Shown: positions 57,215 through 59,001, counted from the stretch's first letter. The stretch is DNA of 64,000 nucleotides from Polyangiales bacterium (GCA_038231275.1 JBBRLQ010000002.1:320001-384000); one strand, 5' to 3'. Notes: a model not told the origin generated them from the letters alone. Translations and numbers: made by a program.

Positions 57215-57265
57215 AGCTCTCGGCCACCCTTGACAGTCGCGTTCGGCGACGCACGTTGGCGGCCA

Positions 57266-57300
57266 CTTGGAAGCGAGGGTTCGACTCCCTCGGCGCACCT
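57266..57300 (+). ncRNA. Isolated tRNA T-arm plus 3' acceptor-like segment (module 1)
   Basis: GAGGG TTCGACT CCCTC GGCGCACC; TTGACA at 57230-57235 upstream. Confidence 0.5.
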
Positions 57301-57400
57301 CTCCCACGCGCTCGGCGCGTCACGCGAACACGCGAGCCTGCTTGCCCGCGCACGTTCGCGCGGCGTTTTGCCGTTCGCGTCTGGGGTCGGATCGCGCGCG

Positions 57401-57526
57401 GGTGCCCTCTTAGTACCCTGTTGGACATGGGTTCGATTCCCATCGGCGCCACCGGAGCGAATGCTCCCGTTGATCTTGGCGCCGTAGCTCAGAGGTAGAG
57501 CGACAGATTCGTAATCTGAATGAACC
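57401..57526 (+). ncRNA. Circularly permuted tRNA-like RNA (YrlA/Y-RNA-like topology), module 2
   Basis: T arm 57427-57443, 3' acceptor CGGCGCC-A 57444-57451, linker, 5' acceptor GGCGCCG 57478-57484, TA, D arm 57487-57501, anticodon-like arm 57503-57519. Confidence 0.75.
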
Positions 57527-57873
57527 GCCCCGCGGACGTGGGGCCCTCCATCGCGATCGCACCTGACCAGCTCGCTCTGCGGGTTGGCGGCGTGACGCGA
57601 TGGCGCGACGCGTGCCCGATCGACGGGCGCTCGACGTCGTGGCCGAAGGCCATCGTCACGGCGACCGCCTTCGTGCCCCGCGTGTGAGCCCCCATGACTC
57701 GCGCCCCGTTGCGCCCGTGCGACGCGCGCCTCTGCGCGGACGACGCGCTTTCTTCGTGAAGCCGCGCGAGATCCACGTTGGCGACGCGCGTTCGAGGGTG
57801 AAGCGTCCGCGGAGCCTATTTTTCCGACTCTTTCGAGATCTCTTCGGTCCTTTTATTCAACTGGAGGTTTGCC

Positions 57874-59001
57874 ATGTACATGCTGATCCCCGTTCCCCTC
57901 GTCGCGCGTGCCGTCGTCCTTCGGGACGGCTTGCCGATTCGCGCGCTCGGGCCCGGTCGTCACGGCGTGTGGGGCACGAACCTCACGGTGCTCCGCTGGG
58001 ACACGGGCGAGCTCGTCTTCCAGGCCGCCCCCGAGGTGCGCGCCGTGCTGCCGGCCGAGTGGTACCGCGAGGTCACGCTCGGCGAGCGCGAGCGCGGCAT
58101 CCTCTTCAAGGACGGCCGTCCGAAGCTCTTCCTGCGCGCCGGAACGCACCGCTTCTGGATCGTCGATCCGTCGGTGCGCCTCGAGGTCTTCTCGCTCGAC
58201 GCGCCGATGCCGGTGTTCCCGGCCGACGTCCTCGCGATCGTCCCCAAGGACGAGTACCTCGCGGTCGTCGTGCGCGCGCACGAGCGCGGCCTCGAGTACG
58301 AGAGCGGCCAGTTCACGGCCACCCTCGCGCCGGGTCGCTACGCGTTCTGGTCGCGTCCCGAGGCGAAGGTCGAGGTCGCGATCGTCGACATGCGCCTCGT
58401 GCAGGTCGCGATCACCGGCCAGGAGCTCATGACCAAGGACAAGGTCACGCTGCGTCTGTCCATCACGGTGGAGTTCGCCGTGGAGGACGCCGCGCTCGCC
58501 ACCCACGCGGTCGCGAGCGTGAAGGACGCCGTGTACCTGCTCGTCCAGCTCGCCGCGCGCGCGTTCGTCTCGGGCGCGACGCTCGACGAGCTCCTCGAGG
58601 GCCGCGACGGCATGACGCGCGCGCTCGAGGAGGACACGATCCCCAAGGCGCGCCGCTTCGGAGTTCGCATCGAGCGGGTCGGCGTCAAGGACATCGTCCT
58701 GCCCGGCGAGATGAAGACGCTCCTGAACCGCGTCATCGAGGCGGAGAAGGAGGCTGCGGCGAACGTCATCCTTCGCCGCGAGGAGACGGCGGCCACGCGC
58801 TCGCTCGCCAACACGGCGCGCGTGATGGCCGAGCAGCCGGTCCTCCTGCGACTCAAGGAGCTCGAGTCCTTGAAGGAGATCGCGGCGCACATCCACGAGG
58901 TGCGCGTCGTGGTTGGTGCCGATGGCTTGAAGTCGCTGCTCCCGGCCGGGTTGCTGGGAGGCGGCGAGACCATCGGACGGAAGCGCGAGGCCGAGACGTA
59001 G
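57874..59001 (+). CDS. Slipin family SPFH/band-7 protein with three N-terminal repeats
   Basis: Three ER.(V/I)....G.....L.PG...(F/V)W units; QELMTKDKVTLR, GVKDIVLPGEMK..LN.V.EAEK.A.AN.I.RREETAATRSL.NTA; GGAGG RBS. Confidence 0.9.
   Translation: MYMLIPVPLVARAVVLRDGLPIRALGPGRHGVWGTNLTVLRWDTGELVFQAAPEVRAVLPAEWYREVTLGERERGILFKDGRPKLFLRAGTHRFWIVDPSVRLEVFSLDAPMPVFPADVLAIVPKDEYLAVVVRAHERGLEYESGQFTATLAPGRYAFWSRPEAKVEVAIVDMRLVQVAITGQELMTKDKVTLRLSITVEFAVEDAALATHAVASVKDAVYLLVQLAARAFVSGATLDELLEGRDGMTRALEEDTIPKARRFGVRIERVGVKDIVLPGEMKTLLNRVIEAEKEAAANVILRREETAATRSLANTARVMAEQPVLLRLKELESLKEIAAHIHEVRVVVGADGLKSLLPAGLLGGGETIGRKREAET

Follow-up and report, generated by a model that had tools for sequence, protein, structure and literature searches.

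A permuted tRNA mimic upstream of a soluble slipin gene in a Polyangiales bacterium: a further case of the Band-7-associated tRNA-like RNA

Introduction

Near the end of a 64,000-nucleotide stretch of DNA from a Polyangiales bacterium (GCA_038231275.1, JBBRLQ010000002.1:320001-384000; this whole stretch is called the window below, and positions are counted from its first letter), 659 bp (57215-57873) without a convincing gene separate the stop codon of an upstream open reading frame (ORF; 57214) from the ATG of a slipin gene (57874), as judged from the ORF table and the sequence itself. The question that this locus raises is whether a structured RNA lies in the gap and, if so, whether it and the slipin belong together. 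An earlier note, made from the sequence, had inclined to yes on both counts: it described a non-coding region of about 660 bp with two tRNA-like modules, and it proposed that RNA plus slipin may be a minimal unit that stands alone, with neither Ro nor RtcB beside it. We report here that, judged by its covariation, one of these modules is a genuine tRNA mimic, and that its association with slipin genes recurs across a broad sample of bacterial phyla.

Pairs of this type have a published background, for which we draw on excerpts of the sources cited. In a computational study of 2016 in Nucleic Acids Res, Burroughs and Aravind predicted, as an aid to RNA repair, a Band-7 protein that is accompanied by a 'b7a-tRNA' and lies next to RtcB (10.1101/312249). 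The b7a-tRNA occasionally adjoins Rsr, and the YrlA RNA occasionally adjoins a Band-7 protein (10.1101/312249). According to the same source, a 2018 preprint, the Band-7-associated RNA is without experimental validation (10.1101/312249), and within the partial texts covered by our literature search no experimental study of a slipin-RNA particle was found. The RNA-slipin pair of the window is of a kind already in print (Band-7 with b7a-tRNA or YrlA) and is not new.

A permuted tRNA mimic in the slipin leader

The mimic (57418..57519, plus strand; module 2 in what follows) lies about 355 nt upstream of the slipin gene, on the same strand. It possesses all the arms of an authentic tRNA, those of D and T type being in tRNA consensus form, yet their order in the gene is circularly permuted: the variable loop and T arm come first, then a loop-closed acceptor helix, the D arm and an anticodon-like arm. 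Specifically, the variable loop (57423-57426) is followed by the T arm (57427-57443) and by an acceptor helix of 7 bp (57444-57450 / 57478-57484), which is closed by a 27-nt loop with ACC at its start and a small hairpin inside. Then come the equivalents of U8/A9 (57485-57486), the D arm (57487-57501) and an anticodon-like hairpin with the loop TTCGTAA (57503-57519). A closing strand that was read by hand (57418-57422) pairs with 57502-57506, and the anticodon-like hairpin competes with this closing helix for positions 57503-57506. Because its gene order is circularly permuted, the mimic as transcribed has no free acceptor end.

Within Rfam, the YrlA family (RF02553) matches positions 57419-57508 (36.7 bits, E 4e-6), and the mimic has the parts of the YrlA tRNA-like domain, namely the T arm, a loop-closed acceptor-type stem, the D arm and the closing stem. 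Since the match spans model positions 23-88 only, the window RNA is without the Ro-binding helix; nor was an extended Ro-type helix seen, by eye, in the flanks of 24 members. With the same model the orthologous loci of five relatives score 30.1-45.9 bits and L108, the closest relative of the locus (its slipin has 90% protein identity to ours), scores 46.4 bits, all of them below the gathering score of 69. Two weaker Rfam matches overlap the mimic, tmRNA_permuted at 29.3 bits (threshold 47) and tRNA at 28.7 bits (threshold 29). A permuted two-piece tmRNA and a canonical tRNA gene were both considered and rejected: the former scores too low and ARAGORN finds no tmRNA gene in the whole 64-kb window, while for the latter ARAGORN likewise finds no tRNA gene and the acceptor helix is closed by its 27-nt loop. 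The genome has a standard tmRNA on another contig (C49).

The identity of the mimic is carried by its covariation. In six orthologous leaders 95.8% of the cells are paired and double changes occur in 13 of 20 pairs, as against 38-46% pairing when the partners are slid, and none of 500 shuffles reaches the observed values. A regular-expression classifier recognised the permuted form in 12/81 loci but was too strict, and we employed instead a covariance model of the permuted mimic, R1; it matches the window at 57411-57510 with 77.5 bits. Fitted to R1, 32 loci give an alignment of 37 rows (eight of these rows lie elsewhere in their locus, several inside tRNA arrays), with 94.9% of the cells paired and double changes in 19/20 pairs, compared with 38.8-52.1% paired when slid. 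Covariation is present in all four helices, and even the comparison with L108 reveals compensatory changes in the acceptor and T stems. On this sequence evidence, module 2 is a genuine tRNA mimic and represents the Band-7-associated tRNA in its closed-acceptor version, which is that of YrlA.

The details of the fold vary among its members. In 26 permuted members parsed by a script the closing helix has at least 4/5 pairs in 20, the anticodon-like hairpin at least 4/5 in 11, and both do so in nine, including the window. Members that lack the local anticodon-like hairpin often have a distinct hairpin further 3', whose loop is of the CUGAAAC type. An acceptor helix (at least 6/7 pairs) was recognised by script in 26 of 45 candidates. 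Its loop starts with NCC in ten of the latter 26 and with ACC in seven (our own locus, L108, L109, L010, L024, L037 and L028), and in many members a 7-nt loop of the form pyrimidine-U-NNN-A-A comes after the D arm. Taking all loci together, the element upstream of slipin has two forms with the same D-arm/T-arm consensus, the permuted closed-acceptor form and a cloverleaf-like 'tRNA' whose anticodons are often odd and vary between orthologous loci. Some leaders in Bacteroidota and Bacillota carry extra T arms or a second mimic (L045:3083-3163, L094:3094-3110, L086, L087 and L090), and there the RNA part is therefore multi-domain.

A soluble slipin with repeated N-terminal units

The protein encoded downstream is a soluble slipin of 375 aa (57874..59001, plus strand). 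Pfam Band_7 matches it over aa 132-304 with 85.9 bits (threshold 23.6), and a profile made from 36 members of the family matches stomatins in the PDB over aa 142-347 (E 1e-36), several of these entries holding 16 chains; the same profile also matches the archaeal PH stomatin, QmcA and HflK. The earlier note had read the protein as three N-terminal beta repeats followed by an SPFH domain, and this reading stands. In hhalign comparisons the three units (aa 5-66, aa 67-130 and a third compared as aa 131-196) are homologous, with probabilities of 98.5-99.3% among one another, the third being the start of the SPFH domain itself (aa 131-304). Since the units are homologous and 21 of 28 N-terminal segments match the start of the Pfam Band_7 model, the slipin has, stacked at its N-terminus, a further two copies of the beta unit with which SPFH begins. 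A stomatin-type helix and a C-terminal part complete the protein to aa 375. In longer family members we read the several matched stretches of sequence as extra repeats.

No membrane anchor was detected in the slipin, its highest 19-residue hydropathy mean being 1.54, at aa 105 and not N-terminal; 35/36 family members stay under 1.6 at their hydropathy maximum, and no member has that maximum at the N-terminus. The family comprises 468 cluster representatives at E <= 1e-30. Cultured carriers include Myxococcus eversor AB053B, Myxococcus sp. CA023, Bradyrhizobium sp. STM 3557, Paenibacillus allorhizoplanae and Lacipirellula limnantheis I41. A close cluster member, P0097, is named 'slipin family protein' by NCBI, whereas NCBIfam gives only weak HflK matches to the slipin itself, below the cut-off. 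The PADLOC defence library contains no match, and a search of 50,697 phage records returned none for the slipin either. By its homology to the 16-chain stomatin entries, the slipin may assemble into a homo-oligomeric ring or cage.

The N-terminal part of the protein raises the possibility of a likeness to vaults. For aa 1-131 (57874-58266) every named ESM Atlas cluster listed is of a vault-repeat family, Band_7 clusters being excluded, at scores of 0.85-0.87, which are below the 0.9 line and make this a lead only. Pfam Vault, Vault_2, Vault_3 and Vault_4 match none of the 28 N-terminal segments at E <= 10, and no vault repeats were found in the PDB profile search of the slipin.

Conservation of the RNA-slipin pair

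Does such an RNA accompany slipin genes elsewhere? Our set of related genomes numbers 41, of which five besides our own have a full-length slipin ortholog (58-69% identity), and in all five of these orthologous loci a YrlA-like match lies upstream on the same strand. The wider sample consists of 80 slipin loci in named genomes from many phyla (Myxococcota, Planctomycetota, Bacteroidota, Pseudomonadota, Bacillota and Cyanobacteria), an element being counted when it was an R1 match (among the best 150) or an ARAGORN tRNA; three loci with less than 400 nt upstream were left out of the upstream counts (n=77). An element lies at most 1 kb upstream of slipin and on the same strand in 71/77 loci, and on the opposite strand in 0/77. 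At most 1 kb downstream, it occurs on the same strand in 5/75 loci and on the opposite strand in 2/75. The distance to slipin is mostly 210-700 nt, and in some loci (L023, L024, L027 and L033 among them) the element is kept before slipin with no other tRNA nearby. A scan of metagenomes contributed 2 loci only.

The genes that follow slipin are far less constant than the RNA that precedes it. RtcB, sought by tblastn with our own genome's RtcB as the query, occurs within ~5 kb in 13/80 slipin loci, always on the same strand, and is the first downstream gene (by Pfam, in the largest ORF starting at most 1.5 kb downstream) in 8/75 loci. RlaP, a poly(A)/CCA-type nucleotidyltransferase and PhoH are found once each among these 75 loci, and the remaining downstream neighbours are unrelated genes, including those of all Myxococcota and most Planctomycetota loci. 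Gene order thus supports the view that a tRNA-like RNA and slipin constitute the conserved core and that RtcB is an optional neighbour. The scoring of regions upstream of slipin homologues, which the earlier note had put forward as a check, shows the association to be recurrent (71/77 against 0/77 on the opposite strand), and its idea of RNA plus slipin as a minimal unit with no RtcB or Ro nearby agrees with the same upstream count and with the presence of RtcB in 13/80 loci.

Relation to tRNA arrays, RtcB and Ro

The other tRNA-like module, module 1 (57275..57299, plus strand), consists of a T arm, GAGGG-TTCGACT-CCCTC (57275-57291), and a 3' acceptor-type strand, GGCGCACC (57292-57299). The stretch 57231-57298 aligns best to a tRNA-Lys(CTT) gene in an array of our own genome (score 54, versus 19.5-46 for the other 19 tRNAs there), and because its best alignment is to the genome's own array, module 1 is most simply explained as a decayed array tRNA. 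True tRNA genes occupy its position in L007, L009 and L010, and module 1 itself is kept in L108. Of the two modules claimed earlier, module 2 is upheld as a mimic with the support of covariation, whereas module 1, a T arm and a 3' strand, is probably the remains of a decayed array tRNA and not a second mimic.

The array in question lies outside the window and has 20 tRNA genes on the same strand (contig C12:226768-229169). It runs to about 220 bp from the contig end, its tail begins another tRNA-like stretch, and several of its tRNAs have unusual D arms. Arrays are also seen beside slipin itself: at least five same-strand tRNA genes, and up to 27, lie upstream in 14/80 loci. L009 has the mimic and then slipin placed between five tRNAs and two more; L007 begins with an RtcB-like stretch and two tRNAs, after which come the mimic, slipin and four tRNAs. 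The window has no such long tRNA array, ARAGORN finding 0 tRNA genes there. From the sequence, we read the locus as the shortened end of a once longer tRNA array, with one decayed tRNA still in front. The stand-alone unit of the earlier note holds in so far as neither RtcB nor Ro lies beside it, but not in the sense of a free-standing invention, given this resemblance to the end of an array.

Arrays may also bear on how the permutation came about. Junctions of neighbouring tRNAs match R1, and a permuted look can therefore arise from arrays. In L111 (3387-3471, minus strand) the junction of tRNA-Lys(CTT) and tRNA-Lys(TTT) scores 53 bits with R1, and for this reason the permuted mimic could have evolved from two similar tRNAs in tandem.

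As had been claimed, neither RtcB nor TROVE is encoded in the window. The rest of the genome (94% complete) was searched as well, as the earlier note had advised: there is a single RtcB gene, on contig C18, with no adjoining tRNA-like RNA and with neighbours that lack an informative Pfam match, and there is no TROVE match in this 94% complete assembly. RtcB is present in 6/6 genomes with a slipin ortholog and in 25/41 overall, these genomes being related and not independent of each other. Strong TROVE matches are restricted to G005, G007, G017 and G024, all without a slipin ortholog; G028 and G026 have short TROVE matches only (25.2 and 21.7 bits). Ro is situated inside same-strand tRNA arrays in G017 (L110), G007 (L111) and G005 (L112), with 5, 10 and 6 tRNAs, respectively, per ~3-4 kb, and in these three Ro loci there is no Rfam YrlA match at E <= 0.001. 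Judging from gene content and order, Ro and slipin seem to take one another's place in tRNA arrays. The counts fit, but do not prove, the published view of Ro/YrlA and Band-7/tRNA-like RNA as alternatives to each other.

Leader signals and flanking genes

Aligned to L108, the gap shows 1-nt indels, as expected for non-coding DNA, and an all-against-all blastp of the upstream frames found no spacer peptide common to the loci other than slipin N-termini. The leader from about 57247 to the slipin ATG is common to the window and L108. The hexamer TTGACA that the earlier note placed at 57230 is indeed there (57230-57235, plus strand) and could, by its sequence, be a -35 element; TTGAC is found at the same spot in L108, where the conservation of the leader begins and the DNA further upstream is unrelated. 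Because TTGACA has no -10 partner, the sigma-70 promoter scan returned 0 sites, and no sigma-54 motif was seen by eye in the window leader.

Three further hairpins follow the mimic, all on the plus strand. A GC-rich one just 3' of it (57527..57544), which is predicted by folding and kept in L108, is possibly a 3'-end or stabilising hairpin. Another (57641-57677; fold z-score -1.7) exposes a loop, CAUCGUCRCGGCGAC, that is kept in our own locus, L108, L007 and L020; the stem change in L108 is compensatory, and no known family matches this hairpin. The last is a weak terminator-like hairpin with a T-rich tail (57734..57757). The terminator scan gave 2 terminator-like sites versus 0.9 expected by chance, their folds are no better than those of shuffles, and by these measures there is no strong terminator between the mimic and slipin. 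A GGAGG ribosome-binding site (57863..57867, plus strand) stands 6 bases before the slipin ATG, and the start region is kept in L108.

The flanking genes are those named earlier and lie outside the unit. Upstream is a lipoprotein-type gene (56504..57214, plus strand), whose likely GTG start at 56504 gives MIRAGSAAVLLASALLGC... and whose signal peptide, read from the sequence, is ...LLASALLGC; it has a weak Pfam FG-GAP match (E 5.8e-4, below the cut-off). This gene is absent from L108, where a different and unrelated gene precedes the unit. Just 5' of it, an ORF of 634 aa (54603-56507) has no Pfam match at E <= 0.01. Downstream and convergent is purK (59011..60108, minus strand), recognised by the Pfam families ATP-grasp, PurK_C and RS_preATP-grasp-like.

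Comparison with known systems

With the predicted Band-7/b7a-tRNA module our locus shares a tRNA-shaped RNA that immediately precedes a Band-7 gene in the same orientation, as well as a link to RtcB in part of the family; unlike that module, it has no adjacent RtcB, RtcA, RtcR or nucleotidyltransferase. The Ro60 (Rsr)/YrlA system of Salmonella Typhimurium and Mycobacterium smegmatis has the same tRNA-like domain, with the same D-/T-arm consensus (PMC4201824; RF02553), and the 7-bp acceptor helix of the window mimic is as in the M. smegmatis YrlA (PMC4201824). RNase P cleaves that RNA, the one YrlA whose acceptor stem has 7 bp, in vitro, and CCA is added to it in vivo (Chen et al. 2014, PMC4201824). 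What sets our locus apart is a genome without Ro, an RNA with no match to the Ro-binding helix and a sub-threshold score, an anticodon-like hairpin, and slipin as the partner.

A link of slipin genes with RtcB, RtcR and Ro, which the earlier note had brought up, is corroborated by RtcB directly after slipin (8/75 loci), by the printed prediction (10.1101/312249) and by an enterobacterial locus. In Citrobacter freundii NZ_CP151862 (L115:4640-4960) rtcR is divergent from slipin, and a nucleotidyltransferase gene comes after slipin. The Citrobacter slipin has 37% identity to the window slipin over aa 13-350, and its leader contains a sigma-54-like TGGCAC-N5-TGGCA and a lone T arm. Both loci thus have the same slipin family behind a T-arm leader, but the enterobacterial one lacks a D arm and an acceptor helix. 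In E. coli (L114) the slipin-nucleotidyltransferase pair occurs without rtcR, and at least 80% of the stretch made up of the E. coli leader, slipin and nucleotidyltransferase is present in 1625/5426 complete E. coli genomes.

Evidence on regulation comes from Anabaena PCC 7120, in which the repressor TrcR directly targets alr0739-alr0740, alr0740 being a slipin, and binds the alr0739 promoter (PMC10272220). In a trcR mutant alr0740 is up 42-fold and rtcB 77-fold, a silent tRNA operon is induced, and alr0739-alr0740 is also induced by chloramphenicol (PMC10272220). Long tRNA arrays are co-regulated with rtcB in a further study, the excerpted text of which does not mention band 7, stomatin, prohibitin or HflC (PMC8421152). 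Slipin, RtcB and a long tRNA array are parts of one response in Anabaena; in our genome and its relatives the link is one of gene order. The Anabaena genes are at separate sites, connected by the repressor, and the array is a tRNA operon of 26 genes; in the excerpts of these two papers no tRNA mimic is described (PMC10272220; PMC8421152).

As to the protein, the SPFH domain and helix of the membrane cages formed by stomatin, HflK/C and QmcA (PDB 9wmj, 9oh9, 3bk6, 8z5g and 7vhp) align with aa 142-347 of the slipin, and these solved relatives are ring or cage multimers. The window slipin differs from them in having no membrane anchor, in its two extra N-terminal beta units, and in a partner that is an RNA gene and not a protease or NfeD. 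The eukaryotic vault is a soluble particle with a small RNA, its parts being the major vault protein, vault RNA and the TROVE protein TEP1. The two are alike in the order of parts, with beta repeats leading to an SPFH-like domain and then a long helix, and, as regards the proposed slipin particle, in solubility and the association with a small RNA. They are unlike in that the slipin has no Vault Pfam match and its repeats are copies of the start of SPFH.

Possible function and alternative explanations

What, then, might the pair do? The reading that we favour, by a little more than an even chance, is that a soluble slipin multimer binds the mimic and takes part in the response to damaged tRNA or to translation stress, working in trans with RtcB and substituting for Ro. 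The mimic RNA and slipin would be made together from the same strand, the slipin would multimerise as stomatins do, and the multimer would bind the tRNA mimic. The resulting particle would act in response to damaged tRNA or stalled translation, where it might offer a tRNA-shaped bait or sensor to the enzymes that cut, mend or modify tRNAs or, alternatively, provide a platform on which RtcB from elsewhere carries out the repair; in either capacity it would fill the job that Ro with Y RNA has in sister genomes. A bolder version, which we regard as quite unlikely, has the slipin forming a membrane-free, vault-like shell that holds a non-chargeable mimic, as the counterpart of Ro/Y RNA in spare tRNA arrays, and that is a bait or sensor for anticodon-loop cutters.

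Several observations weigh against a slipin-mimic particle acting in trans. The YrlA score of the window RNA, 36.7 bits, is below the Rfam gathering score of 69, and the Ro-binding helix is not covered. In 6/77 loci (L021, L029, L048, L055, L058 and L098) there is no upstream element at the thresholds used. Scans of the leader reveal neither a strong terminator nor a recognisable promoter that would bound a separate RNA gene. The co-occurrence counts among the relatives are small and not independent, and the Anabaena alr0740 is likened to the window slipin by its slipin name alone. Finally, deletion of PaFlo8, the slipin of the rtc locus in P. aeruginosa, had no phenotype in tests of growth, motility, biofilm and peroxide, according to the excerpted report (PMC13086221).

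The main rival is that the RNA is a cis-acting leader, its tRNA-shaped fold in the 5' untranslated region (UTR) of the slipin mRNA being either a processing site for RNase P or other tRNA enzymes, in which case processing would set the 5' end and stability of that mRNA, or a sensor of the tRNA machinery that couples slipin synthesis to the state of tRNA handling. Such a leader would account for the unvarying strand of the element and its confined spacing upstream of slipin (mostly 210-700 nt), for the want of a convincing terminator downstream of the window RNA and ahead of the slipin ATG, and for the fact that L108 preserves the entire leader, which runs from about 57247 up to the start codon. 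Transcription from one promoter would be in keeping with it too: the sigma-54-like promoter of Citrobacter precedes leader and slipin together, and in Anabaena the promoter of the 'hypothetical' alr0739 serves alr0739-alr0740 (PMC10272220). Joint transcription, however, cannot tell cis from trans, and the same class of RNA acts in trans with Ro (PMC4201824). The array loci, moreover, co-transcribe with slipin many true tRNAs that are plainly trans-acting, and a D arm, a T arm and an anticodon-like loop, all in tRNA consensus form, exceed what a processing site needs. We consider a purely cis-acting role unlikely, though it is a serious contender. It is also possible to view the mimic as the precursor of a split or permuted tRNA: RNase P would cut 5' of G57478, the 3' strand would be trimmed after A57451, and CCA would be added to it. 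The product would be in two pieces, its anticodon loop intact and its CCA end exposed, and it could be aminoacylated, or else RtcB could join it into a functional tRNA. The 7-bp acceptor helix, the ACC (7/26) or NCC (10/26) at the start of the acceptor loop in the RNAs with an acceptor helix, the pyrimidine-U-NNN-A-A loop after the D arm of many members and the precedent of the M. smegmatis YrlA, with its RNase P cut in vitro and CCA in vivo (PMC4201824), are all consistent with this, and for the ACC-loop subgroup such maturation is possible by analogy. But many members have acceptor loops of 3-7 nt without NCC (L006, L007, L020, L027 and L033) or short acceptor stems, and therefore cutting cannot be general. 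The anticodon, furthermore, varies among orthologs (CGT in our own locus and L108, TGT in L006, GAA in L007, and CAA versus TGT in two Myxococcus species), which argues against a decoding role. As an account of the mimic at large, maturation to a split tRNA strikes us as distinctly improbable.

There are two other explanations. Perhaps a tRNA array has left behind nothing more than two decaying, functionless modules, and slipin is an unrelated passenger; the resemblance of module 1 to a decayed tRNA and the R1 matches at junctions of neighbouring tRNAs, such as the Lys|Lys junction of L111 with its 53 bits, are what one would expect of such relics. Decay would not, however, be accompanied by compensatory changes that preserve all four helices, by retention of the element before slipin in tRNA-poor loci such as L023, L024, L027 and L033, or by a strand and position bias of 71/77 versus 0/77, and we disfavour this explanation strongly. 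Alternatively, the RNA could be an ordinary Y RNA, a YrlA that serves a Ro protein encoded elsewhere, since its best Rfam match is YrlA and the L108 match, at 46.4 bits, spans the whole model. But no TROVE match exists in our own genome, at 94% completeness, the five other genomes with an ortholog contain no full-length TROVE (G028 and G026 have the short matches only), and the window match is without the Ro-binding part of the YrlA model; we give an ordinary Y RNA hardly any credence.

Significance

The window is a confirmation of the predicted pairing and not the discovery of a new kind of system. The bacterial Ro/Y RNA and the predicted Band-7/tRNA-like RNA pair are two long-standing puzzles of RNA repair. 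In relatives, long arrays of spare tRNAs end in the RNA-slipin pair, and in Anabaena, as far as the excerpted reports go, such arrays switch on under translation stress. If the vault-like version were true, the slipin-mimic particle would be a bacterial analogue of the vault. The family is found in tractable bacteria, among them Myxococcus species, Bradyrhizobium, Paenibacillus and Lacipirellula.

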